Source of the DNA: an uncultured delta proteobacterium
GTDB lineage: Bacteria > Desulfobacterota > Binatia > UBA9968
Direction of reading: 5' to 3'
DNA: 64,000 nt
NCBI GenBank assembly: GCA_963728565.1
Contig: CAVSLC010000013.1
Location: 192,001 to 256,000, forward strand
Shown here piece by piece: positions 5,005 through 25,333 of the stretch. A program made the translations under genes and the position numbers. Numbering within the stretch: the first letter of the stretch is position 1; each line of letters opens with the position of its first letter. The notes below the pieces were generated by a model. It was not told the origin of the DNA. It worked only from the letters and a program-made list of their open reading frames with translations, and did no database searches.

Positions 5005-5028
5005 AAAACCGGCTAATCGGCCGGTTTT
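5005..5028 (-). terminator. intrinsic terminator after the amidohydrolase
   Basis: Minus strand AAAACCGGC-CGATTA-GCCGGTTTT hairpin followed by GTTTT. Confidence 0.6.
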
Positions 5029-6080
5029 AATTTGCCGCTAATGGATACATTCTTTTGGGATTCTGCGTCATGATCTTTTGCTTAGTTTCCATCGCGAGGT
5101 CCTCACGAGCGACAAATTTACTGATATTTTCCCTGAATTCCGAGCGCGGTTCATGGGGAAAGTCAGTCGCGCAGAAAAGGATATCGTCACGGAGAAGCTC
5201 GACGATTCTCGGAATGCCGAGTTCCTCGAGTTCGCAATGGATGAATATGCGGCCGCTCTTTAGATGTTCCGAGGGAGCAATCTTAAGCTCGGGAACCTGC
5301 GCGCTACGGTGTTCATATTCCAGGTCCATGCGTTCCATCAGATATGGCACCCAACCGCAACCAGCCTCAGCGAACGCCACTTTTAGCTTGGGAAATTTGT
5401 CAAAAATACCGCCATAGATCATCCCCGTCATTTGAATCATCTGGCCGAAGCCGTGACTCAAGGTGCGAACCTCGATCAAACGGTCAAAGGCGTCCACGCC
5501 GATGCCTTGCGTCGGAGCGGCATGAACAGCCAGGAGCGCGTCCAACTCTTGGGCCGCCTCATAGACCGGAAAGTATCTCTCGTCACCGAAGGGCTGCCTC
5601 ATTCCGACTGCCGGAAGAATCGCGCCTAGCATGTTGAGTTCCTTGACCGCTCGCCGTAGCTCTTTGACCGCCTCCGGTATGGATTGCAGCGGAATCAGAG
5701 CCATGCCGCGAAGCCGCTTTTCCTGCTTTAAGAATACTTCGGAAAGATAATTGTTATAGCCTTGGGCGATCGCACAAGCCCAGTCCTTGTCCCGGATCAA
5801 TCCAAAAGTAAGCCCGGCGGTGGGATACAGCACCGACCATTCGATCTCATCTTCATCTAGAAAATCCTTCCACTCCTTGAGCGATCCCTGCGCTACATAG
5901 CGGCCTTTGCCATCGACGACGCGCAAAGCCTGACGGTGAAATCCATCCAAGGTCGGAAAGAACGGAAACGACAAGAGATCCTCCCTGCCCTTGTAAGGCG
6001 GCGGCAAAAAATCTAACAGAGCTCGATCATTTTCCACCACATGTCCGTCAGCATCGATAAATCCTTTAACCTTAGCTCAT
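5027..6080 (-). CDS. amidohydrolase family (Amidohydro_2) protein; 1-bp insertion just after the start
   Basis: Upstream of the listed ORF the same frame reads AKVKGFIDADGHVVE (metal-binding DxDxH); ATG at 6080 is one base out of frame; AEAGCGWVP and ATDFPH motifs. Confidence 0.85.
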
Positions 6081-6297: not shown

Positions 6298-7881
6298 TCA
6301 CCGATCATTAAGATCACTGGGTAAGATCATTTTGTGCGACAAAAACTCACTGACCACATCTTTCACCTGCCGCTGATCGCCATCGACAGCATAGTTGAGC
6401 TCACGCATCTCCTCGACGTTCAGAATTCCGCCCAGCTGTTTTAGGACTTCTCTTAGCTCAGGATGATTCTCCAAAGCCTTCTGCCGCACGACCGGTACCG
6501 CATCATAAGGAGGAAAGTAGTGCAGATCGTCCTCGAGTTGCACCAGGCCGTATCGGCTGATCAGGCCGTCGGTCGAATTCCCGGCAATCAGATCCACTTG
6601 CCTCTCCGATAGAGCGCGATAGGTCAAGGACAGGTCCATTTCACGAATTTCCTTGAATTGAAAACCATAGGTCCGCGCAAAGCCTGGATAACCGTCAGGC
6701 CGTGACATGAAATCCTGACCGAATCCGGCGCGCCATTGTGTTGACATTCGTGCCGCGTCAGTAATCGTCTTGAGATTATGGCGTCGTGCTTCATCGCCTC
6801 GAACCAGGATCGCAAAGGTATTGTTGAAGCCAAGCGGTTCGGTCCATTCGATGCCGAACTGTTCGGCGTAAGACGATTTGACCTGGCGATACACCTCTGC
6901 CGGATCCTTAATCGCCGGATTTTTTAAGATCGCCAGCAGAGCAGTACCGGTGTATTCGACATAAACATCAATCTCGCCGGCGATCATCGCCTGATGAGCC
7001 AGATTTCCGCCCAGATCGAATCGGCGCTCCACTTGGAGGCCGGTTTTGGCTTCAATCACCTGCGCCAGCAATTCACCCATAATGATCTGTTCGGTAAAAT
7101 CTTTTGAGCCAACAGCGATGCGGCTGGCACTGTAACCTCGCAGAAAACTGACAGTGCCAACCGCTATCAGGATGAGGGCTGTCGCCAGTGCCGGCCACAA
7201 AAGCTTGCGAATTTTGTGACTTGCCGCGCCGCGAAAACGGATTGCGCGCTCCAAAAATCCAAGAAACAGATCGGCAACGAGGGCAATCAAAGCAGCCGGA
7301 ACTGCTCCCGCCAGAATCAACACGTTGTCATTCGCTCTCAAGCCGCGGAAAATGTATCGTCCCAATCCGCCGGCATCGATGGCGGCGGCGATGGTTGCCG
7401 TGCCGACGCAGATCACGGTGGCGACGCGCACGCCGGCGATAATGACGCCGAGCGCTAGTGGCAATTCAACTTGAAGGAGCAGCTGCCGATCAGTCATGCC
7501 CATGCCGCGGCCGGCCTCCCGAATAGCCGGATCGACGCCGCTGATTCCGGTAAAAGTATTTCTAATGATCGGCAGCAGCGAGTATAAAACCAGTGCGGCA
7601 ATGGCGGTGCGGGCGCCGATACCACCGACGATACGCACATCAAAGAGAATCAGGTTGACCGGGATCAGAAAGCCAAAAAGCGCCAAGCTCGGCACGGTTT
7701 GCATGATGTTGGCAATGCCCAAGACGGGTTTGCTCAACGCCGGTTTACGCGTAAGGAGAATGCCGAGTGGCACACCGATCAGGAGCGCAATGCCGATTGA
7801 AACGCCGACTAGAAACAGATGCTCAAAGATCAGTGCAGCGAGTTCAGCCCGGTGCTCGAGGAAAAAGCGCAGCAAGCTCAT
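6298..7881 (-). CDS. quaternary-amine (betaine/osmoprotectant; EgtU/OpuBC-like architecture) ABC permease fused to substrate-binding domain
   Basis: QTVPSLAL, EAGRGMGM and GGLG permease motifs; C-terminal OpuAC-type SBP (GSKDFTEQ, YVEYTGT, RPDGY, FPPY); ATGA overlap with the ATPase stop. Confidence 0.9.
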   Translation of the reverse strand: MSLLRFFLEHRAELAALIFEHLFLVGVSIGIALLIGVPLGILLTRKPALSKPVLGIANIMQTVPSLALFGFLIPVNLILFDVRIVGGIGARTAIAALVLYSLLPIIRNTFTGISGVDPAIREAGRGMGMTDRQLLLQVELPLALGVIIAGVRVATVICVGTATIAAAIDAGGLGRYIFRGLRANDNVLILAGAVPAALIALVADLFLGFLERAIRFRGAASHKIRKLLWPALATALILIAVGTVSFLRGYSASRIAVGSKDFTEQIIMGELLAQVIEAKTGLQVERRFDLGGNLAHQAMIAGEIDVYVEYTGTALLAILKNPAIKDPAEVYRQVKSSYAEQFGIEWTEPLGFNNTFAILVRGDEARRHNLKTITDAARMSTQWRAGFGQDFMSRPDGYPGFARTYGFQFKEIREMDLSLTYRALSERQVDLIAGNSTDGLISRYGLVQLEDDLHYFPPYDAVPVVRQKALENHPELREVLKQLGGILNVEEMRELNYAVDGDQRQVKDVVSEFLSHKMILPSDLNDR

Positions 7882-8645
7882 GAACAGCTCTGCGCCTTTC
7901 CGGTATCGTGAAAACATTGGACGAAAGCCCGAGCCTCAGGATGATTCGAAGCAAGAAGCTCGGCAGGCGGTCCCAAAACGATCATCTCGCCATCCTTGAG
8001 TAAGCCGATGCGCGTTGCCAGGGCGAAAGCTTCGTCCACGTCATGAGTGACGAAAACCATGGTCTTGCCCAGGTGTTTTTGCAGTGAGCGAAACTCTTGT
8101 TGGATTTCGCGTCGCGTAATCGGGTCCAAAGCACCGAAGGGCTCATCTAGAAGGATCATCGGCGGATCTGCCGCCAACGCACGCGCCACCCCGACCCTTT
8201 GGCGCTGTCCACCGGAAAGTTCCGCCGGATAACGGGCGGCGAATCTGTCAGGCTCCAAACTCACCATCGCTAGCAGTTCCCGAGCGCGGTTTCTGATTTT
8301 ATCGGCCGGCCAACTTTCAAGCCTGGGTACGAGCCCGATATTCTCTTCAATGGTTAGATGAGGAAATAAGCCAATCTCCTGAATAACGTACCCGATCCGT
8401 CGCCGGAGAATTATGGGATCCCAGGCTCCTGTTGAGATTCCCTCGACCCGCACTTCGCCGGAAGTCGGCTCAAGTAGACGGTTAATCATCTTCATGGTGG
8501 TTGTTTTACCCGAGCCGCTACGGCCGAGAAGCACCACTGTTTCCCCCCGGCCTATCGTAAGGTTGAGATCAACGAGAAGTTTTTTCCCTTCACCGATCTC
8601 AAAGCTGACGTTGTCGAATTCGATAGCTACTCGATTGTCGATCAT
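7878..8645 (-). CDS. ABC ATP-binding protein, OpuA/ProV/EgtUA-like
   Basis: GRSGSGKTT Walker A, IGYVIQEIGLFPH, LSGGQRQRVGVARALAADP, DEPFGALDPITR; start taken at ATG 8645. Confidence 0.92.
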   Translation of the reverse strand: MIDNRVAIEFDNVSFEIGEGKKLLVDLNLTIGRGETVVLLGRSGSGKTTTMKMINRLLEPTSGEVRVEGISTGAWDPIILRRRIGYVIQEIGLFPHLTIEENIGLVPRLESWPADKIRNRARELLAMVSLEPDRFAARYPAELSGGQRQRVGVARALAADPPMILLDEPFGALDPITRREIQQEFRSLQKHLGKTMVFVTHDVDEAFALATRIGLLKDGEMIVLGPPAELLASNHPEARAFVQCFHDTGKAQSCS

Positions 8646-8702
8646 CGATCCATCGTCTCCCCCGGTCGCATCCGATTCCACTTTCTTATATTCTATTTCG
8701 AT

Positions 8703-9731
8703 ATGGAAACAGAGCCGCTGCCTTCGATCCTTGCGCCGCATCAGAAGGCGCGATGGAAAACCAATCAGGACGGTATCTGGACCTTGGACGGCTCCCGCGT
8801 AGATGAGGTCCCAGCCCGTTCGATTTTGACAACCTTATGGGATCAGCCCCGCTGGTTGGAGGCCTATCACTTATACGATCAACGAGGCTCCGATCTTTTC
8901 GAGCAGATTTGTCAGCTGCCGGAGTATTATCTGACTCGTACAGAAAATAGCATTCTCGAAGCGCAAGCCGCCGCAATCATCGCCGCCGCGCCGGTAGAAT
9001 GCATCGTCGAACTAGGCGCAGGCTATAGCAAGAAGACGATTCATTTGCTTACGGAACAGCTGCGGCAGCGCGACAAAGGGATCTTCGCGCCCATCGATGT
9101 GAGCGAATCAGGGCTACTGGCCTCGCGAGAAGCGGTCGCCCGAGATTTCCCGCGATTAGAGTTTCACGGACTTCACGCTCGCTATGAGGACGGCTTTACC
9201 AGTATCGAGCAAGCCGTGCCGACCCTGTTTGTGTTTCTCGGCAGCACTGTCGGCAACTTCAATCACTCTGACTTTCCACGTTTCTTTCGCGCGTTATCGG
9301 AAGCGATGGGACCGAAGGATTATCTCCTGCTCGGCGCCGATCGTATTAAGGACACAACGCTTCTCGAGCAGGCTTACAACGATTCACAGGGGCTGACCGC
9401 GCAGTTCATTCTGAACGTGTTTTGTCATATCAACGATCTGCTCGGGAGCAATTTTGACCTGGCAAAAATGCGCTATCACGCGCGCTTCAATTCGGAATGG
9501 CAGCAAATCGAAATGTACGCCATAGCGGAGCAACGTCATCGAGTAAGCTTCCCTACAGTAGAAACATCTTTCGAGTGGCAGAAAGACGAAAAAATTCTGG
9601 TGGAGATCAGCCGTAAGTTCGACCCTCAGCGGTTACAGGAACAGCTAAGGTTTTTCGATCTCCTACCGATCGAGCACTTCACCGATCCTAATCAATGGTT
9701 TTCCGTTCTGCTCTTCCGCAAGCAAGGCTGA
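8703..9731 (+). CDS. egtD: L-histidine N-alpha-methyltransferase (Methyltransf_33, hercynine synthase)
   Basis: YDxRGSDLFEQI, LPEYYLTRTE, VELGAG, FLGSTVGN, AYNDSQGLTAQF, IEMY and EISRKF are EgtD hallmarks. Confidence 0.88.
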   Translation: METEPLPSILAPHQKARWKTNQDGIWTLDGSRVDEVPARSILTTLWDQPRWLEAYHLYDQRGSDLFEQICQLPEYYLTRTENSILEAQAAAIIAAAPVECIVELGAGYSKKTIHLLTEQLRQRDKGIFAPIDVSESGLLASREAVARDFPRLEFHGLHARYEDGFTSIEQAVPTLFVFLGSTVGNFNHSDFPRFFRALSEAMGPKDYLLLGADRIKDTTLLEQAYNDSQGLTAQFILNVFCHINDLLGSNFDLAKMRYHARFNSEWQQIEMYAIAEQRHRVSFPTVETSFEWQKDEKILVEISRKFDPQRLQEQLRFFDLLPIEHFTDPNQWFSVLLFRKQG

Positions 9732-9805
9732 ATCTTAGACAACTCCGAAAGCTGCCCGGATAGTATCCCGCTGCCGCACATGCGTTAAGTGGGCACCCTG
9801 CTCGG

Positions 9806-10451
9806 TCAAGGCATTCCCAATAACGATCCCAGTGGTGAAATACTCAGCAACAGAACACTGCCGAAAACGGCAATGCCGCCGCCTGAGATGCGATGGATCC
9901 ACCATAAAAGACGCAAATTAAATCTGTCGCGAAACACCGTTAGGCCGAGAAACAATGCCACCCACCACGATGCCGAACCTACAAAGACCCCGGCGGCGAA
10001 TAGCGCCGCGCCGCCATACTGGCCAATCATGCTCTGGGCATTCCAGGCGGCATAAATCGCAGCGAAAGACAGTATGGTCAAGGGATTGGACAAGGTCAGA
10101 AGAAGGGTTGCCACGTATGTTCGCAGAAGCCCATTGATTCTCTTCGTTCGCGGCGGCGGTTGTCCGGGACGCGTGCAGATAGATTTCGTAACCGAGATAA
10201 CAAAGAAAAAGCCCGCCGACGAGTCGGAAAGCAAACTGGTGATCAACTAAGAACTGCGATACCAGCGAAATGCTCAGGGCCGCGATGCCTCCGGCCAAAG
10301 CATCAGCCGTGGCGATACCCAGGCCGGAAAAAAGGCCATACCATGGGCCCAGAGACAGCGCTCGATTGATGCACAACAGTCCGAGTGGGCCAACCGGTAC
10401 TGCCACGACAAATCCCATCATGGCGCCTTTGATGAGAAGATGAATTGCCAT
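9806..10451 (-). CDS. LysE-family translocator; frameshift near 10180
   Basis: N-half AVPVGPLGLLCINRAL...GLGIATADA in one frame and C-half LLTLSNPLTILSF...GVFVGSASWW in another. Confidence 0.82.
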
Positions 10452-10467
10452 TCCTGCCGTCGGAACT

Positions 10468-11289
10468 TTATTTTCTTGAGCGCGCGCAGCGAAAGCCGAT
10501 ATTGTGATGACCCGAACGGAAATTCCGAGAGACATGAGCGCCTCGATGGGTCGTCGTCAACTCTTCGGCCGCCGAATCCTGACCGCCTCCTCTGGTGACC
10601 CGTACGAGGTCCCGCTGCAACTCTTCACGGCCGTCAGCGGCATTATAGGGATAAGGAAGATACGCGCTGCTCACCCATTCCCAGCCGTTGCCGGCGAGAT
10701 CGAGCACGCCATAGGGGCTTGCTCCTTTCGGCAAGCTCCCCACCGGACGGAAGTCATTCCATCCTGCGCTGAAATGCGCCCGGGTGCGATCGGGCGGATC
10801 ATTGCCCCAGGGAAATTTTCGCCCGTCTGTGCCGCGCGCCGATTTCTCCCATTCCGCTTCGGTCGGCAATCGCTTACCTGACCAATCGCAGTACGCTGCC
10901 GCGCCGAACCACGAGGCCTCGATTACCGGGTGGTTCTCAAAGCCGGGATCAGACTGCCATTTACCGGCGCGAAGGTGAATGCGCGCGTCGTTATCAGCGT
11001 TATCGTACCACCGTTCGGCAGCTGCACCTCGAACGCCTTTGGCCTCGAGGAACCGGGCAAACTGCGAGTTCGTCACCGGTAAACGATCGATGAAAAATTC
11101 CGGCAAATCAATCCGGTGCTGTGGCCGCTCGTCGGCGGGCCCGTCGTCTCTGCCCATTGAAAATGGCCCGGCAGGGATTCTTCTCATGTCAGCGCCATCG
11201 TTTGCATCGGCGCCGGTCGTTTGCGCGATACATGCGGTCATTAATACGACCGAAAGTAAACCCCTCCGCCCAAGAAGAAAACGGCTCAT
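10468..11289 (-). CDS. exported stand-alone FGE-sulfatase (SUMF1/EgtB C-terminal-like) domain protein
   Basis: PAGPFSMG, PVTN, RLPTEAEWEKSARG, DLAGNGWEW, IGFRCA; N-terminal RRGLL plus hydrophobic signal; lacks the FGE catalytic cysteines after RGG and has no DinB domain. Confidence 0.85.
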   Translation of the reverse strand: MSRFLLGRRGLLSVVLMTACIAQTTGADANDGADMRRIPAGPFSMGRDDGPADERPQHRIDLPEFFIDRLPVTNSQFARFLEAKGVRGAAAERWYDNADNDARIHLRAGKWQSDPGFENHPVIEASWFGAAAYCDWSGKRLPTEAEWEKSARGTDGRKFPWGNDPPDRTRAHFSAGWNDFRPVGSLPKGASPYGVLDLAGNGWEWVSSAYLPYPYNAADGREELQRDLVRVTRGGGQDSAAEELTTTHRGAHVSRNFRSGHHNIGFRCARSRK

Positions 11290-11384
11290 GATCGCAACAT
11301 ACCGCTTTTGGAAATTCTAGGAAACACCGCGAATAGGACGAGCTAAACTTGTCACAGGTTTAAGCCTGTGCGAAAGTCCCAGCA

Positions 11385-12530
11385 ATGCGCAACTCGCAAT
11401 CGTTTCGCCGCCGCGGTGTTGTCGAAGGATTCTTTGGTCCGGTGTGGAGCATGGCCCATCGCCGCCGCCTATTCGAGTTCGGCGCCGCTCGGGGAATGAA
11501 CACCTACCTCTATGCGCCAAAGGACGATCCCTTCCATCGCGAACGCTGGATGGAACCTTATCCTGAGAAGGAATGGCAGGCGCTCTTGACTATCATTCGC
11601 GAAGCACGAAAGCGCCACATCGATTTTGTTTACGGCTTTCATCCCGGCAAGGCACTTTTGTTTAGCGCCGAGCAACCGCTGCGCATTCTGCTGTCGAAGG
11701 CGCAGCGTTTCTACGATGCGGGAGTGCGTACCTTCGCAGTGCTGTTCGACGATATCCCTTCTCGTCTGGAGCATGCCGCCGATCGCAAGCATTTCAACAA
11801 CAGCTTGGCACGAGCCGAAGGAAATTGGCTGGCAGAAATTATCGCTCTTCAGCCGCCTGCATGGTCCGATGTGGAGTGGTGGATCTGCCCTTCGTTTTAT
11901 ACCCGCGATCCATTACTGGCGCGCGTGTTTGGCGCCTTTGAGCCGCATTTTTTGGAAAATCTAGCGAAGTACCTTCCGCCCAATGTCTCCTGCTGCTGGA
12001 CCGGCCCTTTGGTGGTATCGACAAAGATAACCCTCGCGCACGTTAGAAAAATTGCCAAGCTCGTCGGCCGGCCGTTGATTCTCTGGGACAACTATCCGGT
12101 GAACGATCTTTCAATGAAGGACGAGCTTCACCTGGGTCCGTTGAAAAATCGTGACACGCATCTGCCGGAAATCGTTTACGGCTACCTCAACAATCCGTTA
12201 GTTCAAGAAGAACTGAGCTTTATCCCTTTGGCCACCTGTTTTGATTATGCCTTAAACCCTATGGCCTATAGAGCGGAAGAAAGTTGGAACGCGTTCGTTA
12301 AACGCTCTTTCGGTCAGCGCGAGAGCGCGCACTGGCGCGCCATTCGGAGCTTCTGCGAAAGAGTTCAGCGAACTAAACGATCAAAAGTTGCCTTGCGCAT
12401 CCCGCGCAGAGAACTGGAGGCGTTGCAAGACGCATCAGAATATATAAAGGCACATCGTCAAGAAAAATGGGCCGTGGAAATCAAGCCATGGCAGGAACAG
12501 ATCGAACAAGCGCTTAAAGCGCAGCAGTAG
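11385..12530 (+). CDS. GH84 beta-N-acetylglucosaminidase (O-GlcNAcase/NagJ-like catalytic domain), cytoplasmic
   Basis: RGVVEGFFG, YLYAPKDDPFHR, catalytic Asp-Asp in FAVLFDDIP, WTGP, LILWDNYPVND; no signal peptide or accessory domains. Confidence 0.9.
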   Translation: MRNSQSFRRRGVVEGFFGPVWSMAHRRRLFEFGAARGMNTYLYAPKDDPFHRERWMEPYPEKEWQALLTIIREARKRHIDFVYGFHPGKALLFSAEQPLRILLSKAQRFYDAGVRTFAVLFDDIPSRLEHAADRKHFNNSLARAEGNWLAEIIALQPPAWSDVEWWICPSFYTRDPLLARVFGAFEPHFLENLAKYLPPNVSCCWTGPLVVSTKITLAHVRKIAKLVGRPLILWDNYPVNDLSMKDELHLGPLKNRDTHLPEIVYGYLNNPLVQEELSFIPLATCFDYALNPMAYRAEESWNAFVKRSFGQRESAHWRAIRSFCERVQRTKRSKVALRIPRRELEALQDASEYIKAHRQEKWAVEIKPWQEQIEQALKAQQ

Positions 12531-12646
12531 ATCGTTATAACTACAGTTCGTCCAAATCTTGATCGCGCGCCGAGACTAGCGTAAATTTTTCAGAATGATT
12601 GATCCCCACAGTTACGCCGAGTTTGCGCGGCAGGCCACTTCCGGCA

Positions 12647-14029
12647 ATGAAAGGCGCTGAGCTGATTTCGCTGATGCGAGAGTATCGTTCCCGTACCCGA
12701 GAGTTGGTTGCAGATCTTGATGAGCGGCAACTGATCGGACCGCGTTTAGCAACGGTGAACCCGCCGTTATGGGAGATCGGACACGTCGGCTGGTTTCAGG
12801 AGTTTTGGCTCTTGCGCCACCTGCGCCGGCAGAAGCCACTGCTTGAGAACGGTGATCAACTCTATAATTCAACGGATGTAGCTCATGATGTTCGCTGGGA
12901 CCTTCTACTGCCTTCGCGCAATAACACATGGCGCTATCTGGACGAAGTCTTGAATCGAGTCATCGAACCGATCGAAGGTAAGCATGATTTATCCAAGGAG
13001 GAGCTCTACTTTTACTCTCTGACCACGTTTCATGAAGCCATGCACGCCGAAGCACTGGCGTGCACAAGGCAAACCCACGGTTATCCCAAGCCGAGCTTCC
13101 TGCCCGCCCACCGTATAGACCAAAATCGATCTGATGATCTTTGCCCAGGAGATGCAGAAATTCCGGGCGGCACATTCTTGATCGGTGCGACGCCTGACGC
13201 ACCGTTCGTTTTCGACAACGAAAAATGGGCTCATGAGGTAGTTCTTCGGCCCTTCCGGATCTCGCGCGCGCCGGTGAGCAATAGAGAATTTCGAGAATTC
13301 GTCGAGGACGGGGGTTATTGCCAGCCAAACTGGTGGAGCGAAGAAGGCTGGCGCTGGCTGGCGACCGGCGGCGCCCCGCAGCTCGAGCATTCGTTCGCAA
13401 AATTCTTCAACAAGCCGATCAAGCAGTCGAGTCAAGCGCATGCCGCTAAAGAGAAACTTGAGCATCCCATGTACTGGCGCCGTGACCCTGATGGCCACTG
13501 GCAACAGCGGGTTTTTGATCGCTACGTTCCGCTGCATGACAATCTGCCGGTTGTGCATGTCAGTTGGTACGAAGCGGAAGCGTTTTGCGCTTGGGCCGGA
13601 CGGCGTTTACCGAGCGAAGCGGAATGGGAAACTGCCGCATCGGCAGAACCAGCTCCCGACGGTTGCAGCTTGAGCAACAAACGGCGTCATTTCCCCTGGG
13701 GAGATACGCTACCGACTAGTGTCGAGGCAAACCTTGACTGGCAGAACGGAATCGTTGAAATCAGCGCCCATGGAGCAGGCGACAGCGCGTTTGGTTGTCG
13801 TCAGATGATCGGCAATGTCTGGGAGTGGACCGCTGACAACTTCATGCCTTATCCAGGATTTATCGCGGATCCTTATAAGGAATACTCGAAGCCGTGGTTC
13901 GGCACCCATAAGGTCCTGCGCGGCGGCTGCTGGGCGACCTCTTCGCGGCTCATTCGCAACACCTGGAGAAACTTCTACACGCCGGATCGTCGCGATGTTT
14001 TCTCCGGCTTTCGAACATGCGCAAAGTGA
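12647..14029 (+). CDS. senA: selenoneine synthase SenA (EgtB-family non-heme iron enzyme)
   Basis: DinB plus FGE domains; iron ligands in WEIGH and FHEAMH; SenA-type VNPPLWEIGHVGWFQEFWLLRH, YNSTDVAHDVRW, DPYKEYSKPWFG and RNFYTPDR; directly upstream of senB. Start could be 12599 or 12647. Confidence 0.85.
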   Translation: MKGAELISLMREYRSRTRELVADLDERQLIGPRLATVNPPLWEIGHVGWFQEFWLLRHLRRQKPLLENGDQLYNSTDVAHDVRWDLLLPSRNNTWRYLDEVLNRVIEPIEGKHDLSKEELYFYSLTTFHEAMHAEALACTRQTHGYPKPSFLPAHRIDQNRSDDLCPGDAEIPGGTFLIGATPDAPFVFDNEKWAHEVVLRPFRISRAPVSNREFREFVEDGGYCQPNWWSEEGWRWLATGGAPQLEHSFAKFFNKPIKQSSQAHAAKEKLEHPMYWRRDPDGHWQQRVFDRYVPLHDNLPVVHVSWYEAEAFCAWAGRRLPSEAEWETAASAEPAPDGCSLSNKRRHFPWGDTLPTSVEANLDWQNGIVEISAHGAGDSAFGCRQMIGNVWEWTADNFMPYPGFIADPYKEYSKPWFGTHKVLRGGCWATSSRLIRNTWRNFYTPDRRDVFSGFRTCAK

Positions 14030-14038
14030 TGCTCCAAC

Positions 14039-14995
14039 GTGAAAATCCAGCTCGTCACTCCGGCGCCGTTGCGCTTTAACAACGGCAACAAGATTACCGC
14101 CCTGCGGTGGGCGAAAATCCTTAGAACCCTTGGACACCGCGTAACGGTTTTGCAGCATTATGACGATAAGCCCTGCGATGCGCTGATTGCACTTCATGCG
14201 AGACGGAGCTATCGGTCGATCCGCCGTTTTCGCAAACTTCATCCCGAATTACCCTTGATCGTCGTCCTAACCGGGACGGACCTCTATCGCGATATCCGCA
14301 GCCACCGCAGTGCTCAACGGTCGCTCACGCTGGCGACGCGGATTGTTGCGCTGCAGAAGATGGCGTTGTCGGAATTATCCGAATCCTTGCATTCAAAAAC
14401 TCGGGTGATCTATCAGTCCGCGGAGCGCTGTTTGAGCCGTAATTCAAAAAATCGAGGAGATGGATTCAAAGTCTCAGTTATCGGTCACCTGAGAAACGAG
14501 AAGGACCCGCTGCGAACCGCATTGGCGACCCGCCGTTTGCCGAAGCACTCGCGGATCGAGGTACAGCATATCGGCCGGGCGTTGGATAAAGACCTCGAGC
14601 GCCGGGCGCGAGCCGAAATGGCGAGAAACCCACGCTATCGGTGGATCGGAGAGTTGGCGCATAAAAGGACCCGGGAGATTCTAGCGCAAAGCGATGTAAC
14701 GGTTATCACCTCGCGCATGGAAGGAAGCTCGAATGTGTTATCCGAAGCGCTCGCCTGCGCCGTGCCGGTCATCGCTTCGAGAATACCCGGATTGATGGGA
14801 ACCCTAGGAAGCGATTACCCGGGCTACTTTGCCACGGGCGACACGGTTTCACTGAGGGAAATTCTATTCCGAGCCGAAAGCGATCGGGCCTTTTACCGCT
14901 CGTTGCAATCAATTTGCAAGAGCTTGTCGCCCCTGGTGGCGCCCAAGCGAGAAGTGGCTGCCTGGAAACAACTTCTACAAGAGCTGCAATCTTAA
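14039..14995 (+). CDS. senB: selenosugar synthase SenB (GT-B glycosyltransferase)
   Basis: VTPAP..GNKITALRW, IALHARRS, VVLTGTDLYRDI, GHLRNEKDP, SRMEGSSNV and YPGYF are characteristic of the SenB family. Confidence 0.9.
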   Translation: MKIQLVTPAPLRFNNGNKITALRWAKILRTLGHRVTVLQHYDDKPCDALIALHARRSYRSIRRFRKLHPELPLIVVLTGTDLYRDIRSHRSAQRSLTLATRIVALQKMALSELSESLHSKTRVIYQSAERCLSRNSKNRGDGFKVSVIGHLRNEKDPLRTALATRRLPKHSRIEVQHIGRALDKDLERRARAEMARNPRYRWIGELAHKRTREILAQSDVTVITSRMEGSSNVLSEALACAVPVIASRIPGLMGTLGSDYPGYFATGDTVSLREILFRAESDRAFYRSLQSICKSLSPLVAPKREVAAWKQLLQELQS

Positions 14996-14997
14996 AG

Positions 14998-16257
14998 CTA
15001 TCGAGATTGAGAAGGCTCCTCGCGTATCCAGGGTTTCACCCAGGGCAAGAGCAGATAAGCGGGCATCGACAACAAAAAAGTTAAGGCGAAATAGTTGCCA
15101 TAGCCATAATGCTCTGCGCCGAGCCCGCTAATGCCGCCGATCAAGCGTCCGGTCAGCGAGAAGATCGAAGAAAGAAAGGCATACTGCACGGTTGCATGCT
15201 CTTTTTGACAAATGTTCATGAGAAAGGCCAGGAATGCCGCCGTTCCCAGGCCGCCGCTAAACGACTCGAACATCGATGCGCTATAGAGGCCGTACCTTCC
15301 AAGACTTAACCATTCGACGGCCGAATAACCCAGATTGGAAAACGCCTGCAGTAAACCCAATAACCATACTGCATGGAAGATTCCGTAACGCGTGATAAAC
15401 GCGCCTCCGGCTAATGCTCCGGCTATGCTGAGAACGATGCCAAAGCTGGTGGGAAACAGTCCGATTTGAAACATGAGATCTTCCTGCAGCGGCCAAATCG
15501 ATTTACCGTAATCCACCCAGAACGGTTTGACCATCGGGCCGATGGCAAACTCGCCCAGCTTATACGTCAACACGAAAGCCACAAGAGGAATTACCCGCCA
15601 AGTCCCGGCCCATCCGATAAAGCCTTGCCACCAGTGCTGGCGCGCTTCCTCGGGCAGATGAAGCCGCGGAATTAGGAGCGCACACAATCCCAGAGCAATG
15701 AATAGCGCTCCCGCCAGGTTGAATAAAAGGCTCCAGCGCAGCGCTGCTGCGAGAAACACCAGCCCACCACCGACGAATACCAAAGCCACTCGGTAGGCGG
15801 AAGCGCGCACGCCATTGGCGGGCCCCTCCTCCTGCCGAGCAATCAGCCCGACTGAATAAGAATCAATGGCAACGTCTTGCGTCGCCGACAAGGTCGTAAA
15901 AGCGAGTACCAGAACGAGAACGAGCAAGCCGACACCGGCAACGTCTACCCACGGCAGCGCTAACAACACCGCTGCGATGCCGAGCATACAACCCAGTACC
16001 CACATGCGGCGATCGCCGTGTCGATGCACCAGCGGCGACCAGATTACTTTTAAAGAATACGGCAGTTCCAGCAGCCGCAAGCCGCCGATGGCGCGCAGCG
16101 AAACGCCGTGCAGCCGAAAGTAAACCGGCAGCACTTCCCAGAGAATAGCCGCGGGCGCGCCCTGAATGAAGTAGAGCAGCGCGACCACACCCAGCTTGTT
16201 CTTGGTTTCTGGCGCCGCCCGACTTACGCCGAGGCATTTCCACATCAGTTCCCGCAT
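14998..16257 (-). CDS. AmpG-like MFS permease
   Basis: LYFIQG, LPYSLKVIWSPLV, SATQDVAIDSY and ATVQYAFLSS match the AmpG/peptide-acetyl-CoA transporter family; convergent on senB with a 2-bp gap. Confidence 0.8.
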   Translation of the reverse strand: MRELMWKCLGVSRAAPETKNKLGVVALLYFIQGAPAAILWEVLPVYFRLHGVSLRAIGGLRLLELPYSLKVIWSPLVHRHGDRRMWVLGCMLGIAAVLLALPWVDVAGVGLLVLVLVLAFTTLSATQDVAIDSYSVGLIARQEEGPANGVRASAYRVALVFVGGGLVFLAAALRWSLLFNLAGALFIALGLCALLIPRLHLPEEARQHWWQGFIGWAGTWRVIPLVAFVLTYKLGEFAIGPMVKPFWVDYGKSIWPLQEDLMFQIGLFPTSFGIVLSIAGALAGGAFITRYGIFHAVWLLGLLQAFSNLGYSAVEWLSLGRYGLYSASMFESFSGGLGTAAFLAFLMNICQKEHATVQYAFLSSIFSLTGRLIGGISGLGAEHYGYGNYFALTFLLSMPAYLLLPWVKPWIREEPSQSR

Positions 16258-18906: not shown

Positions 18907-19815
18907 CTACTTAACGGTCAATAACGCTTCTTTCGCTTCGTCGAGTTGTTTGAGTTCCTCTTTGCTTAGTTTTGGATACTGCAAATTTAGGGACGCGAGA
19001 AGGTCCACCAAAGCAGCTGCAACGATGAGGTGAGTAAACCATTTGTTATCTGCCGGCACGAGGTACCAGGGTGCTTGTTTGGTCGAGGTGTGCCGAATCA
19101 TATCCTCGTATGCTTCCATGTAGTCATCCCAGTGTTCGCGTTCATGGACGTCATTCACTGAAAACTTCCAGTTCTTCTCGGGTTTATCGATTCACTCTAG
19201 GAACCGTTTTTTCTGCTCTTTCTTAGACAGATGCAAATAGAATTTGCGAATAACTATACCATTGCGTGTCAAATAGCGCTCAAACTTCCGAATATCCTGG
19301 AATCGCTCTTTCCAGATATTCTTGGTGACAAGTTCAGGCGGGAGCTTCTGCTTCTCCAACAACTCCGGATGCACCCGCACAACCAGGGTTTCTTCGTAGT
19401 AGCTGCGATTGAATAGCCCGATCATGCCGCGCTCCGGCAAACGTCTCGCGCAGCGCCACAGGTAATCGTGATCGAGCTCCTCGCTGCTTGGCGCTTTGAA
19501 GGATTGAACCTGACAGCCCTGCGGATTGACGCCGGACATGACATGCTTAATGACGCTGTCCTTGCCTGCCGTATCCATCGCCTGAAAGATAACCAGCACC
19601 GCCCAACGGTTCTGTGCATAAAGTTTCTCTTGGAGCTTCGCCAAGATCTCGATTCCGGCGGCAAGGCCTTCCTTGGCGCGCGGTTTATCCTCGGAGTTTA
19701 AGTCGAGTGTGTCGGCAGGGTCAAAATCTTTGAGACGAAAACTCTGACGATCGGTGACGCGAAAGGGTTTGATCAACTCTCTAGCGCTCTCTATCATTGT
19801 ATCTATTGCCATCAT
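18907..19815 (-). CDS. ppk2: polyphosphate kinase 2 (class III signature) interrupted by an in-frame TGA
   Basis: FQAMDTAGKD, SFKAPS, HDYLWR, FNRSYYEE; the two listed ORFs are in frame and read FLE*IDKPEKNWKF across the TGA at 19192-19194. Confidence 0.88.
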
Positions 19816-20237
19816 TCCGTCCTCGTTAAAGGTCTTAAAGCAGAAACTTTCAACACGGTTGGTAGGGTTCTAATCGGTAATTCGTTTTAACGAGCCTGCT
19901 GCTCGTAGATCTACACTTCTCGCCGATCAGTGTTCATCGGAAGTTAACCTGCCCTTTTGCCCGGAGGTTGTTGCATTCGGAACCGATATTCACGACGTGT
20001 TCAGTACATTGTTTCTTGAGTAACACACTTATCAACATGGCGATACGCCATTCGACCGTTCGCCGACTGGATCATCAATTATCTCTGCTGCAAGAAGCGG
20101 GAGCAGCCGCTGTTGATTTATCAACTCTCGCCAGGCCCAATGATGCTGCAGCCTGCTTGGCTGTTTACTTGATTTCCAGTAGACGCCGCCCATGCACGAA
20201 CTTTTCCCAAATCGGCTATGGACAAGCTGCGTGCTTA

Positions 20238-20324
20238 TTATCTCAGCAGCACTGGAAGTAAAATAAAAGCCGCGGCAACCATCAGCGATAACAATGATGC
20301 CGTATCGTATTTATCAAACCCCAT
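20238..20324 (-). CDS. putative 28-aa single-TM small protein
   Basis: MGFDKYDTASLLSLMVAAAFILLPVLLR; weak RBS. Confidence 0.3.
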   Translation of the reverse strand: MGFDKYDTASLLSLMVAAAFILLPVLLR

Positions 20325-20680
20325 GCCCTGATCTGCTGAGCGCCGGCTCTTACTCCACCGTGTCGATAAGCTCATCGTAAATGCAGCGGTAGAACTCAAC
20401 AACTTCCTTAACATTTTGCTTGGCACTGACTGCTGCATGGATAGTTACCGGAGTATCCAACGGCCGAAGACTAACGGGATGACTGAACAAAGCAAAGCCT
20501 GAAACAAAGATTTAACTCACATACGCGGCGCGACGCTCGGGATGACCGATTACCATAAACTTCCTGGCGAGTTCTGATGATTTTACTCATCCGCCGCACG
20601 AGCCACTCACTTATTGTTACCGCTTCTCTGGCAAAGCTTGCTGTTTCTGCTTAACTCTCAGCTGCAGTTCCTTGAAGGAA

Positions 20681-20761
20681 TTACTGGAGGATGCTTCCTA
20701 GGACCAGGATAATCGTCGACAATCCAACTATGATGATTGCATCGAAAAGGTCTTCCCTCAT
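20681..20761 (-). CDS. putative 26-aa membrane peptide (paralog of 42821-42901)
   Basis: MREDLFDAIIIVGLSTIILVLGSILQ; 36 bp downstream of the receiver gene; homologous to a second peptide in the window. Confidence 0.6.
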   Translation of the reverse strand: MREDLFDAIIIVGLSTIILVLGSILQ

Positions 20762-20797
20762 AGACTCAACGATTTCTCCATATCAGAAGCACGCAGC

Positions 20798-21160
20798 CTA
20801 AACGTGTCTTCCAACAGCTGCAATAAGCTCTGTTGCAGCGAACGGCTTGGTTAAGAACTCTACAATTCCAACCTTCTGTGCCTCAGCTTTCACCTCACTC
20901 CGGGTCCAACCTGAACATGCAACGATCGGAATCTTTGTGGTTTCGGGATTGTCCTTGATCGTTCTTGCCAGGTCGAACCCCCTTACATCGGGTAGCGAGA
21001 CATCCATCAAAATTAAATCAGGGAGTTCAGATAAAGTCTTTTTCAATCCCTCATGAGCGTTTTCAGCTTCCCAGGTCTCGTGACCTGCAGAACATAGAAT
21101 CAGACTGAATACACGACGAGCATCGGGATGATCTTCTATGATCAAAATCTTTTTGCCCAT
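20798..21160 (-). CDS. single-domain response regulator (CheY/DivK-like)
   Basis: KILIIEDH, PDLILMDVSLP, FLTKPF; GAGGAG RBS. Confidence 0.88.
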   Translation of the reverse strand: MGKKILIIEDHPDARRVFSLILCSAGHETWEAENAHEGLKKTLSELPDLILMDVSLPDVRGFDLARTIKDNPETTKIPIVACSGWTRSEVKAEAQKVGIVEFLTKPFAATELIAAVGRHV

Positions 21161-21484
21161 TTTAATCTCCTCACCCTTGTTAGGTGCGCCTACTAGTTTG
21201 CCAGCGCGCAACCACCTGATGACCTCTTGTACAAAGGTAATGAGTATCGATTACGTGACGGTTAACGTTCGGTAAACACTGAATGAATAGTGCTACTGGG
21301 AAGAAAAGTCGGTGAAGTTGGAGGAGGCTTGCTCTTACCGATTGGTTCTCAGGAAGGAGGCATATGACCGGGTGAGTAACGGCGCTTGTCAGGAGCCGCT
21401 CCAGCCCGCGAACCGGGTCAAGTCTTCTCGAGAACATTATGAAGCGAGCTTGCATGAGTGATGGGGAGCCAGAAGCAACAATTA

Positions 21485-23586
21485 CTAGATCACATCATTG
21501 GTCAAATCGTTTTCGGCTCGTAAGATCTCATAGAGCCGGTCCTGAGAACGGATGTGTGGTCGACCCGTGCTAGTAACGCGTGATGAGCTACCGTCAGCAT
21601 GGATTTCCCAGGCTTTGGCGGTATCGCTGAGCTGAATCTCCAAGATCTCTTTCAGTCTAAGCTGATGCTGTGGGTCGAGTATCGGAAAAGCGATTTCAAC
21701 GCGTCGATCGAAATTGCGCGGCATCCAATCGGCGGAAGATAACCAGTACGCGGAATCGCCGCGATTATGGAAATAGAAGATGCGAGCATGCTCTAAGTAG
21801 CGGTCGATGATTGAAATGACCCGAATTTTCTCCGAGACGCCCGGAACACCCGGACTGAAACTGCACATGCCGCGTACGATCAAGTCGATCTGCACTCCTG
21901 CTTGGCTGGCACTGTAAAGCTCATCGATGATCGCAGGATCGGTTAAGCTATTCACTTTGGCGATGATCCGCGCCGACTCGCCGCTGCGCGCATGCTCTTT
22001 TTCCTTACGGATGCAGTTAAGGAAGCGCTCCCTCAGTCCAGTCGGCGCCAGTAGTAACTGCTGGAACTTCTGCGGTCGGGTGTAGCCGGTCAGCAGATTG
22101 AATAACTCGGTGAGATCCTGACCAAAGGCTTCCCGGCATGTAAATAGCCCTAGATCGCTATAAACGCCGGCCGTGCGTACATTGTAATTGCCGGTCGCGA
22201 GATGACAGTAGCGCCGAATGCCATCGATTTCCTGGCGCACCACCAGACAGATTTTGCAATGTGTTTTATATCCCACCAAGCCATACACGACGTGCGCCCC
22301 AATTTCTTCCAAGGCCCGCGCCCAGGTGATATTTCTTCCTCATCAAATTTTGCCTGCAACTCACAAGCACCGACACCTCTTTCCGCATTCGGCTGCACGC
22401 GCCAAGGCCTGAGCAATGGGCGAGGAAGGGCTAACGCGATAAAGGGTCATTTTGATCGCAAGCACTTTAGGATCTTTAGCGCGCTTCATCGACAAAACGA
22501 GTCACCGCATCGAAGGAATGGTACGGGTGAAACAGCATGATGTCGCCCGCGCGTATAGCGCTCCAGATATCGGCCGCACGTTCGAAAGCCACCACCGGCA
22601 AAGCTGACTGCGGTCGGTCTTTGAGGCGAGGCATACTGACCGCGGAGTAAAGCTGGAAAAGATCAGTGAACGCAGTAAAGCCTGTGCTCGGATACAGGTC
22701 CTCAGCTCCCAATTAGAGCTCATCACTAGTGGCTCACATTCCGCGGCAGCTCCGGATCGTAGTGCAATCGCACAGCATCACCCATTCGACGCTCGCGGAC
22801 ACCCTGCTCGATCGTCATCAACAGATCTTCGTCGTGCCGGCGCAGCATCCCAAATTCGGCGTCCCGAGTCACTCGGATGGCGTGACACGATCGGATCTCG
22901 AAGCCGTGATAAAGGCGTGGCACATACCGGCTAAGAACATCTTCCAAAAGCACAAACGCATGCTGCCCCTCGCGCGTCGGCAACGGCACGAAGCGAGGCA
23001 CGACGTGCGTTGGGATATGAAGAATTGAAAGATCGGTGTGCGGCAAACGGGAAGCTACGGTGGGACTCAGCGACACGACAAAACATAATGAGCGATTGGC
23101 AAGGTAGGGAAACGGATGTCCCGGATCGATGGCAAGCGGCGTCAGAATCGGATAAAGGGTGCGATTGAAAAAGTCTTCGAGAAAGCGCTCCTGCTCACCG
23201 CTCATCTCTTGCGGCCGAACCAAATGAATGCCTTCCGTGGCCAAATGCGGCAATATCGTATTGATGAAACACAGATGCTGTTCCTCGACAAGCTCGTGGG
23301 CTCGCTTCGAGATAGCTGTTAGGATTTCAGCAGGTGTACGTCCTTCCGGATCCGAATTCTGAGATCCTTTGAAGAGCTGCCGTTTGATGCGAGCGACACG
23401 AACCATGAAAAATTCATCGAGATTAGAACTGAAGATAGCTAAAAACTTAACCCGCTCGAGCAACGGCACAGTCTCATCTTTGGCCTCCTCCAGAACTCGC
23501 CGGTTGAATTCAAGCCATGACAACTCACGCTGCAGATACCTATGGTTCTTATCTCCGTCCATATTACTATCCTGATGTGTTCCCAT
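21485..23586 (-). pseudogene. ppk1: polyphosphate kinase 1, several frameshifts between ~22340 and 22730 (sequencing error or decay)
   Basis: RELSWLEFNRRVL, SSNLDEFFMVRVA, HPYHSF, KTHCK, GNYN, YLEHARI and SADWMPRN lie in successive frames. Confidence 0.88.
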
Positions 23587-23665
23587 TGCTAGAACTCACG
23601 GAGGTGCCCCTAAGGTCCTCGATGAGCAAGGTACAACACGGTTTATCGAACCAACACCCGTTCGT

Positions 23666-23757
23666 GTTAAAAGTACATTAATTTATCGTTACAAACTGGC
23701 CGTTTCAGGGATATCCAGTAGGGGCAATTTGCGCAAAAAAATTAACCGATTTGTAAC
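23666..23757. promoter_or_regulatory. divergent Pho-box-like sites between ppk1 and ppx
   Basis: Minus strand GTAAC/TTAAT/TTAAC at 11-bp spacing (23692, 23681, 23670) facing ppk1; plus strand TTAAC/GTAAC (23742, 23753) facing ppx. Confidence 0.55.
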
Positions 23758-23799
23758 ACTTTTTAGGTCAACAACGGTTCCAATCAATGGTATGTAGAG

Positions 23800-25333
23800 A
23801 TGATGGTAGATCACTTTGCAGTCATCGACGTTGGCAGCAACGCGATGAAACTCCAAGTAGCCGTCGTCGATCAGCCCAAACGCTATCGAGTTGTCGAACA
23901 GGACCGCCAAGCTGTCCGTGTCGGGCACAATGTATTTCAAACCGGCCGTCTGGATCCCGCCATCGCCGAAGCGGCGCTAAAGGTTCTTACAGATTTCAAG
24001 CTAGTAGCAGACCACTATCAGGTCAAGGCCATCCAGGCTGTGGGCACCAGCGCTCTACGAGAAGCCTGCGATGGAAAATCCTTTCTCCGAGAGGCTCATC
24101 AGCTCGGCGTACCGATGCAGATTCTCTCTGAAGAAGACGAAGCTCGACTGATCAGCTTAGGAATTATGAGTGGCCTGCGCTTTCATTTGCCGCTCGGCCT
24201 GTTTTTGGACATCGGCGGGGGCAGTGTCGAAATCGCCGTCGCAAATACAACGAACGTTTTTTGTTTATTCAGTCTACCTCTCGGAGCCGTTCGTCTGACC
24301 GAGGAGCTATTTACCTCTGATCCGCCGCGCAAGCGCGAAATCCGCGACCTACGTCAGGTTGTTAGACAGAAGCTCAGGTCGGTTGGCCAGCGCCTTGGAC
24401 AGGAAAAGTACACCATGGCCTTCGGCAGCGGCGGTACTATGACTGCTCTAGCTGAAACGAATATACGAGTCGCCGGAGATGGCAAAAACGGCTCTCTGTC
24501 GCTTTTGCGGCGGACCCGGCTGAAAGCCTTATTGGAGTTGTTAACAACCATACCAGCTAAAGAGCGCGCCTCACTGATCAGCGGCGATCCCAAGCGCGCA
24601 GATATCATAGTTGCCGGCGGGCTGGTTCTCTATGAGATTATGTCGGAGATCGGCCTCGATTACATCTTTGTCTCGCGAAGAGGTTTGCGGGATGGCTTGA
24701 TGATCGACCTCCTACAGCGACATTATGAAAACTCAGGTGTATGGGATCCGGATGCAGAGCGCGCGGATTCCCTCGAGCAGGTATGTCAAAAGTATCTTGT
24801 ACGATGCGCCTCATGCCTACCATGTTAGCCAGCTTGCGATGAACTTATTCTATCAACTGAACGATCTGCATAAGCTTTCCGATAAATATTCCAGTATTCT
24901 ACAGGCAGCAGCGATGCTGCACGATATCGGCCTTTTCATAGCTGAGCCTAAGCACCATAAGCATTCCTACTATCTTATCAAAAGTTCGGGAATTAACTCT
25001 TTTGATAAGCTTGATCTCGACGTGGTGGCCAACATTGCTCGTTATCACCGCAAAGCGCACCCCAGCCAGAAGCATCTAGGTTTTAGTCAACTCTCTCCAA
25101 GCAACCAAGATGTGATACGAAAACTAAGTGCTATACTCCGAATTGCCGATGCGTTCGATTATAGGCACGACCAAAAAGTTATTGCCCTGACGTGTGCGGT
25201 GAAAAAATCCAAAGCTATCACTGTTACTGCTTCCGGCACGGATGATATCGGTGACGAAATCGCCTGGGCTTCGAAAAAGGGGCAACTGTTTGAAGAAGTT
25301 TTCAACCTCAAGCTCGTTATCCAGAAAGCATAG
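23800..25333 (+). CDS. ppx: Ppx/GppA exopolyphosphatase with C-terminal HD domain; frameshift near 24798
   Basis: IDVGSNA, GTSALRE, DIGGGSVE, RADII, GLRDG, then LHDIG...HHKHSYYLI...ARYHRK in the next frame. Confidence 0.88.

Follow-up and report, generated by a model that had tools for sequence, protein, structure and literature searches.

A GH84 β-N-acetylglucosaminidase gene linked to senB in a selenoneine locus of the Binatia

The stretch of DNA analyzed here (hereafter, the window) covers 64,000 nucleotides of contig CAVSLC010000013.1 from an uncultured delta proteobacterium of the class Binatia (assembly GCA_963728565.1). At positions 6298-16257 it carries nine open reading frames (ORFs) with intergenic gaps of −40 to 95 bp, and family models and domain matches agree with the identities that an earlier note on this DNA had given to nine tightly packed genes. 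The ORFs fall into five blocks on alternating strands: ATPase-permease (minus), egtD (plus), FGE-lysE (minus), GH84-senA-senB (plus), and a gene of the major facilitator superfamily (MFS; minus). Since the strands alternate in this way, the nine genes cannot form one transcript, and a single nine-gene operon is ruled out. The GH84 gene (11385..12530), senA (12599..14029), and senB (14039..14995) would encode a β-N-acetylglucosaminidase, the non-haem iron selenoxide synthase that makes selenoneine, and a selenosugar synthase of the GT-B fold, respectively, and egtD (8703..9731) the histidine trimethylase supplying hercynine. Judging from these genes, we regard the locus as a genuine selenoneine locus of a Binatia lineage, a pathway variant with one apparently undescribed accessory enzyme. 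The GH84 gene looks like a conserved addition to this locus, and the neighboring transporters look like ordinary passengers.

Although egtD is co-directional with GH84-senA-senB, it is split from them by the opposite-strand FGE-lysE pair. One related genome (G007) has the order egtD-GH84-senA-senB on a single strand, and another (G013) has egtD-GH84-senB. These runs suggest that the plus-strand genes of the window form a functional set, with FGE-lysE as an opposite-strand insert. Promoter and terminator scans of the locus gave numbers close to chance (5 vs 5.9 expected and 13 vs 12.7, respectively). Contigs of three soil metatranscriptome runs span parts of nearly all nine genes, and one crosses the convergent egtD-lysE pair; since such contigs show neither strand, level, nor co-transcription, they were left out as evidence.

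A check with hidden Markov models bears out the senA-senB-egtD core proposed in the earlier note. SenA (NF041186, 495.6; cut-off 420), SenB (TIGR04348, 398.1; cut-off 300), and EgtD (TIGR03438, 297.1 bits; cut-off 290.9) all score above the cut-offs, whereas SenA falls below that of the EgtB model TIGR03440 (329.2 vs 360). The true start of senA is possibly the ATG at 12647. The 13 SenA residues N54, E59, H62, H96, R99, H145, H149, Y426, Y429, N458, F459, Y460, and R464 all agree with the set named for Variovorax paradoxus SenA (PMC11237966; cited works are represented here and below by the accessible parts of their text). The active site retains the three-His triad, the catalytic Tyr, equivalents of N63/E68/R120, and the Y/N/F motif for hercynine (PMC11030361), and His96 and Tyr460 occupy the sites of EgtB Arg87 and Asp416, the His and Phe/Tyr substitutions relative to EgtB being those described for SenA (bioRxiv 2022.04.13.486033). 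The complete motif, with Tyr or Phe at 460, is found in 70 of 75 aligned sequences; the exceptions are three truncated sequences, one with Tyr at 459, and one OvoA-like paralogue. The protein does not group with EgtB, and the models and residue motif rule out the γ-Glu-Cys-using EgtB that the earlier note had named as the alternative.

The window SenA matches structures of OvsA, from the ovoselenol (ovs) cluster, with 346-355 bits, against 245 bits for V. paradoxus SenA, and, like SenA, OvsA uses 1-seleno-β-N-acetylglucosamine (SeGlcNAc; PMC11030361). However, the top match is the engineered OvsA-YNF variant, and an OvsA identity is ruled out by Y429/N458/F459, which stand in place of the histidine-binding motif M401/Q430/A431. 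The locus also differs from the ovs cluster in having egtD and no ovsM nearby. In SenB, N17, T20, K155, E228, and E236 correspond to N20, T23, K158, E231, and E239 among the catalytic and substrate residues of V. paradoxus SenB (PMC10891094), and N17, K155, E228, and E236 are invariant in 77 of 77 sequences. Both enzymes thus resemble those of the V. paradoxus senA-senB-senC cluster in passing the curated models and in keeping these residues; a subset of published sen clusters likewise has egtD and a transporter nearby (bioRxiv 10.1101/2022.04.13.486033, PMC11237966, PMC10891094). Unlike V. paradoxus SenB, 57 of the 77 sequences have the motif EGSSNV for EGGAHV. At the level of the cluster, the window differs in that GH84 precedes senA, senC is missing, and a selenocysteine (Sec)-containing selD lies elsewhere.

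Comparisons within the order covered 61 genomes, namely the window's genome plus 36, 5, and 19 genomes from three families (f1, f2, and f3, respectively). Neither senC nor selD was found inside the window cluster or any locus of the order examined, and selD lies elsewhere in 58 of the 61 genomes. The window's genome has one copy, in a selA-selB-selD run on another contig (G000:C28, L283:3916-8598), and also a tRNA-Sec. Since an in-frame TGA is located at the active site of SelD in nearly all genomes of the order, SelD is a selenoprotein, and it serves both the Sec and sen pathways. In the four genomes of f2 and f3 that were checked, egtD is separated from the cluster by ~20 to 300 kb. Taken with its enzyme set, the organism very probably makes selenoneine.

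Some genomes have further synthase-like genes. Four genomes (G013, G034, G017, G352) have two senA-type genes each, and the window's genome has a second non-haem iron sulfoxide-synthase-like gene (G000:C9:25717-27093; L003:1426-2802, L282:6718-8094), located directly behind genes for an AhpC/TSA peroxiredoxin and a LysR regulator. Its best match is the N-terminal model of OvoA (265 bits; cut-off 400), its motif is unusual, and a scan of 13 flanking ORFs revealed no methyltransferase or lyase; the gene may represent an uncharacterized subfamily.

The GH84 protein (381 residues) has the PF07555 barrel (E = 1.5e-80) with the adjacent catalytic residues D122/D123, and the residues of the N-acetylglucosamine (GlcNAc) site are intact and conserved (K46, Y172, T206, W234, N236, D241, and N270). 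Its best PDB match by both sequence and fold is the O-GlcNAcase (OGA) of T. terrenum (5diy; Foldseek TM 0.84), and the AlphaFold model has a predicted local distance difference test score of 89.5. The TIM barrel, the catalytic DD pair, and the GlcNAc site are shared with this enzyme, C. perfringens NagJ, and human OGA. Unlike these known O-GlcNAcases, to which it is ~32% identical, the window protein is short and without signal peptide or carbohydrate-binding modules. A hydrophobic N-terminus is found in only 3 of 120 GH84 homologues, and the enzyme is predicted to be cytoplasmic and single-domain. Its clade, which is tied to senB, also differs from other GH84s at F17, H86, and S170 and in the loop after Y172, which has 18 residues compared with 9 in most other GH84s; the nine-residue insertion contains a predicted helix (176-182). 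F17 replaces a Tyr, human Y69 by motif register, and Y69 and F223 of human OGA affect substrate handling (PMC2973230). We infer that the loop shapes the aglycone site.

In a tree of 176 GH84s from fetched loci, the 76 sequences at ≥48% identity form one clade (support 0.90), whose sisters stem from one metagenome-assembled genome of Lambdaproteobacteria and one of a deltaproteobacterium (0.99). A second tree, which includes representatives from the 1.8-billion library, recovers the clade with support of 0.999, and the clade is essentially one 50%-identity cluster. A GH84-Sen enzyme fusion was considered and rejected: in a word-index search limited to proteins of 209-667 residues, and among the representatives, none was found, and the only long high-scoring one (2097 residues) is an ordinary multi-domain NagJ-type protein.

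The link between the GH84 gene and senB is real and conserved in the order. Among the 61 genomes, which are kin and are counted without phylogenetic correction although related genomes are not independent, senB was found in 56 and GH84 in 54; the two co-occur in 53 genomes, and 4 (G030, G035, G043, G045) have neither gene. Weak glycosyltransferase matches to senB (E > 1e-20) had been dropped beforehand, and partial matches were retained (GH84 in G017, G025, and G026; senB in G032 and G047). Wherever the two genes share a contig, which is the case in 44 genomes, they are co-directional and separated by 138-3357 bp, with no distant pair, so the tie of the GlcNAcase to the sen genes suspected in the earlier note stands. 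In the other nine genomes with both genes, the assemblies are fragmented and the two genes fall on separate contigs; GH84 abuts senA in four of these nine. The pairing is kept even where senA has moved: senA is 0.8-1.4 Mb from senB in G037 and G041 and on another contig in G013 and G039, and GH84 stays within 138-332 bp of senB in all four. Across wider samples, senA or senB adjoins 14 of 18 close GH84 loci but 0 of 62 distant ones in genomes, and 30 of 46 vs 0 of 34 on metagenome contigs, many of which are short. Both sister-lineage genomes carry senB, away from their GH84. Genomes with other GH84s, represented by the 50 of 60 loci not already tested, reach the SenB cut-off in 0 of 50 cases (one split match).

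GH84 beside senB hints at a sugar-removal or recycling step. In the published pathway, the selenoxide formed by SenA is eliminated spontaneously and the sugar is lost as 2-acetamidoglucal, while reducing conditions lead to a dead-end selenoether; this hercynyl-SeGlcNAc selenoether was observed in vitro (bioRxiv 2022.04.13.486033), and 2-acetamidoglucal is the sugar by-product of the related OvsA reaction (PMC11030361). According to the family and residue tests, EgtD would make hercynine, a distant housekeeping SelD would supply selenophosphate, SenB would make SeGlcNAc, and SenA would couple SeGlcNAc with hercynine to the selenoxide, from which selenoneine would be eliminated. The cytoplasmic GH84 may hydrolyze Se-β-GlcNAc linkages of this pathway, for example converting hercynyl-SeGlcNAc to selenoneine, and we are evenly divided on whether it does. 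Its likeliest substrate would be the hercynyl-SeGlcNAc selenoether, a reduced shunt product of SenA that would give selenoneine and free GlcNAc, and we put this choice forward tentatively. Excess SeGlcNAc, its diselenide, or the by-product 2-acetamidoglucal would be other, rather unlikely, substrates. That the whole GH84 clade is a dedicated seleno-glycosidase, which frees selenoneine from hercynyl-Se-GlcNAc and returns intact GlcNAc, is possible but doubtful.

Since the window's genome encodes glutamate-cysteine ligase, a thiol reductant is likely and reduction of the selenoxide in vivo is plausible. The selenoimidazole should be a good leaving group. Hydration of 2-acetamidoglucal belongs to the repertoire of hexosaminidases, for which we found no support among the papers listed. 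Cleavage of thioglycosides by O-GlcNAcase is indicated by the title of reference 18 in PMC2973230, and the accessible parts of PMC12073459 and PMC13547098 contain no Se-glycoside hydrolysis.

Other observations weigh against a pathway role, in addition to one given below with cell-wall recycling. The selenoether was ascribed to excess dithiothreitol in vitro (bioRxiv 2022.04.13.486033), and alkyl S-GlcNAc resists human OGA (PMC8451060). The pathway can do without GH84: seven senB genomes that belong to the class but to other orders lack a GH84 next to senB, and none was found beside senB in the two sister-lineage genomes either. According to the tree, the clade entered the Burkholderiales at least two times. 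In the family of G063 and G061, GH84 is present in 10 of 151 genomes though senB is present in 140, and a single one of those 10 GH84 genes adjoins senB. The co-occurrence there is thus background and uninformative, and we dropped the 3 of 3 Burkholderiales genomes with both genes as support; this rate covers the family of G063 and G061, not that of the third genome. Within single genomes and loci, G352 has GH84 and two senA genes, but senB was not found; GH84, senA, and senB are all broken in G438; L043 has GH84 with neither senA nor senB found in the 6.4 kb downstream; and G084 and G211 share the loop insertion, with senB not found. Since the order's genomes are related and there is loose conservation of the wider region, where 15 of 17 f3 genomes have ampG at 11-42 kb from senB, part of the GH84-senB linkage may be inheritance.

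The rival that survives best, which is possible if not favored, is that GH84 works with AmpG to recycle the cell wall, in the manner of NagZ, splitting GlcNAc from imported anhydro-muropeptides; GH84 may also double in this role. AmpG imports muropeptides, and NagZ splits off their GlcNAc. GH84 would then lie near senB through the common pool of GlcNAc and uridine diphosphate-GlcNAc or by inheritance. The gene that invites this comparison is the MFS gene (14998..16257, minus strand), which is convergent with senB and encodes a divergent AmpG-family protein below the AmpG cut-off (TIGR00901, 238.8 vs 350). Since it is the only AmpG-like gene in the window's genome (a single tblastn match), it may still work as AmpG, and we consider it probably a muropeptide importer that is loosely linked to the locus. 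Its orthologue is present in 31 of 36 f1 genomes, 0 of 5 f2 genomes, and 0 of 19 f3 genomes. This distribution and its being the only gene of its family speak against the earlier proposal that it is a GlcNAc-glycoside transporter of the locus.

An AmpG-family gene, nearly always single, is present in 55 of the 61 genomes and lies <2 kb from senB in 31 of 34 f1 genomes. In G013 (C77, L284) and G019 (C8, L285), a canonical AmpG (490-512 bits), 27-29% identical to the window MFS, takes the place of the divergent MFS beside senB, in opposite orientations in the two genomes. GH84 would be cytoplasmic, like NagZ. A further observation favors recycling at the expense of a pathway role: among 10 genomes checked for GH3/NagZ, none was found in G013 or in the single-contig genomes G037, G038, and G060, all four of which have AmpG and GH84. 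On the other hand, ampG is 0.5-0.9 Mb from senB in f2 while GH84 stays adjacent, and no f3 genome has it within 2 kb of senB. The window's genome has its own nagZ (NF003740, above cut-off; G000:C5, L274), convergent with the gene of a plant-type glutamate-cysteine ligase (TIGR01436, above cut-off), and GH3 genes accompany GH84 in G005, G014, G015, G024, and G330. Cell-wall recycling in G330 and in five of the six f1 genomes tested can do without GH84, since these genomes have NagZ. AnmK turned up in a single genome of the five tested (of G037, G038, and G060, only G037), and G045 has a canonical AmpG, although GH84 and senB were not found in this 81% complete genome. The locus resembles the AmpG-NagZ system in placing an AmpG-family MFS next to a cytoplasmic β-N-acetylglucosaminidase, but the MFS does not reach the AmpG cut-off, a GH84 takes the place of the GH3 hydrolase, and the genome has a separate NagZ. 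Literature joining GH84, NagZ, and recycling was found only on NagZ inhibitors. Separately, G037, G038, and G060 have an AmpG above cut-off with no GH3/NagZ found.

It is improbable, in our view, that mere inertia of the neighborhood explains the linkage, with GH84 acting on an unrelated housekeeping substrate, such as protein O- or S-GlcNAc, and simply being inherited together with senB from the order's ancestor onward. The genomes of the order are related, nine of the ten transferred Burkholderiales copies are away from sen genes, and the sister-lineage GH84s are not beside senB, all as inertia would have it. However, every other neighbor, including senA, leaves senB in some family and GH84 does not, and GH84 and senB are jointly absent from four genomes. 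Adjacency to a different senB lineage has also arisen anew in the Burkholderiales genome G330, where the acquired GH84 lies 2.3 kb from a betaproteobacterial-type senB without adjacent senA, with ArsR-rhodanese, desaturase, and rhodanese genes in between.

The layout of G330 recurs in L173 and L176. All three cassettes (G330:C110, L288, for the first) read senB, ArsR-rhodanese, fatty-acid-hydroxylase-like, rhodanese, small membrane ORF, and GH84, and adjoin a cus copper-efflux operon, away from senA. A 99-residue ORF before GH84 in L173 has no Pfam match. A divergent senB/senA layout is common to other Binatia orders (G066, G087, G117; L230-L232) and Burkholderiales (G061, G063; L225, L226).

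The remaining genes bear on the proposal of the earlier note that the nine genes form a full synthesis, salvage, and exchange system. Spelled out, the ATP-binding cassette (ABC) transporter would take up hercynine or selenoneine and LysE would send it out, Se/S-GlcNAc glycosides would be carried by the MFS, and the exported FGE domain would bind or process the compound. The ABC transporter consists of a fused permease and OpuAC substrate-binding protein (SBP) domain (6298..7917, minus strand; PF00528 + PF04069 and PDB matches) and an OpuA/ProV-type ATPase divergent from egtD (7878..8741, minus strand, probable start ~8645), whose best family is TIGR01186 (278 bits; cut-off 326.6). The fused permease-SBP, PF04069, and an aromatic cage for trimethylammonium are shared with the ergothioneine importer EgtU (bioRxiv 10.1101/2022.05.02.490363). 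Unlike EgtU, the SBP has F274, Y322, and F364 at the positions of EgtU G244, F293, and Y337 in 13 of 13 orthologues, with the register deduced from how the residues are spaced in bioRxiv 2022.05.02.490363 and not from a tool alignment to EgtU; by this register it lacks the specificity residues of EgtU. F/Y/F is the pattern of glycine-betaine ProX in the same source, and the SBP is less similar to EgtUC than to OpuBC/OpuC. The transporter is thus predicted to be a quaternary-ammonium importer with a ProX-type, not an EgtU-type, pocket.

The lysE/RhtB-family exporter gene (9806..10451, minus strand) is frameshifted, with the PF01810 halves in two frames owing to one extra base near 10179, and is either a pseudogene or an assembly error. 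It is intact in 27 of 27 other loci holding both halves, and contigs from runs X15 and X17 do not have the extra base. The FGE-sulfatase-fold protein (10468..11289, minus strand, divergent from GH84) matches only PF03781; a DinB iron domain is lacking, and the aligned stretch shows no FGE Cys pair. Its best PDB match is FGE (3e-26), ahead of EgtB (1.4e-21). An N-terminal signal-like hydrophobic segment in 109 of 120 homologues supports export. The earlier note had spoken of an exported EgtB-like domain; the export holds, whereas the fold is generic FGE, not EgtB-like. Strongly conserved H105, H261, H262, R255, and N256, with several aspartates, possibly bind a metal or a ligand. Genomes of f2/f3 have a paralogue with 50% identity.

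Some of these neighbors do persist. The block is largely conserved within f1, where egtD and the ABC genes are divergently paired in many loci, the FGE-fold gene adjoins GH84 in f2 (G037, G039, G041), the position beside senB is taken by either of two different AmpG-type genes, and the surroundings of this enzyme class are enriched in Opu-type ABC genes: Table 1 of PMC13674229 gives egtD (69.9%), Opu-type ATPase (13.6%), and permease (5.4%) as common neighbors, and in its accessible text lists no glycoside hydrolase. However, permease-SBP matches were found in 31 of 36 f1 genomes but in only 2 of 5 f2 genomes (paralogues of 37-46% identity) and 0 of 19 f3 genomes; the MFS orthologue is missing from the 24 f2 and f3 genomes, most of which keep GH84-senB; and the FGE-fold gene is absent from the f3 loci examined. 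The corresponding gaps in relatives contain unrelated genes (alpha/beta hydrolase, desaturase, VOC protein, two-component genes). The accessory-gene synteny that the earlier note had called for is therefore seen order-wide for GH84 with senB, and not for the ABC transporter and MFS. Since these two are family-restricted, an exchange system is unsupported, and with five strand blocks, a betaine-type SBP, and a broken lysE in the window, the full nine-gene system is most unlikely. The betaine ABC transporter, LysE, the FGE-domain protein, and the AmpG-like MFS would be family-level neighbors and not required parts.

Other genes recur around these loci. A fatty-acid-desaturase-like gene (checked in L043) often sits between egtD and lysE in relatives, and an alpha/beta hydrolase gene often adjoins GH84 (L043, L147, L149, L157, L154, L158, and others); both are absent from the window. 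The f3 loci examined (L128-L139) have a co-directional amidohydrolase_2 gene immediately before GH84, and an amidohydrolase encoded beside the window cluster (5027-6040) is ~30% identical to it. At 19192-24828 the window has ORFs whose translations resemble polyphosphate kinase 2, polyphosphate kinase 1, and a Ppx/GppA protein; the presumed ppk1-like gene appears split (21485-22312 and 22726-23586).

Searches of mostly open-access literature, with supplements outside their scope, found no publication on selenoneine together with an O-GlcNAcase or GlcNAcase and none combining a selenosugar with a glycoside hydrolase; SeGlcNAc with hydrolase led only to structure work on SenA/SenB, and Binatota with selenium only to unrelated work. 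The novelty that the earlier note had suspected is therefore partial: the GH84 link was not found in print, whereas egtD and the Opu-type ABC genes are already tabulated neighbors in the accessible part of PMC13674229.

If GH84 stood in for NagZ in cell-wall recycling, this would also be undescribed in the literature searched, though less striking. If instead it is a seleno-glycosidase, it would be the first natural enzyme known to us that breaks a C-Se glycosidic bond, bringing enzymatic release, a counterpart of EgtE, to a step thought to be enzyme-free. The pathway would then have a four-enzyme variant, egtD-GH84-senA-senB, which nearly all members of an abundant soil order would carry and in which GlcNAc brought in by AmpG might feed SenB, and GH84 could raise the yield of engineered selenoneine production. 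Bacterial selenium metabolism would gain a step through such a rescue or recycling hydrolase, and a bacterial GH84 would gain a natural function, most of these enzymes being known only as models of human O-GlcNAcase.

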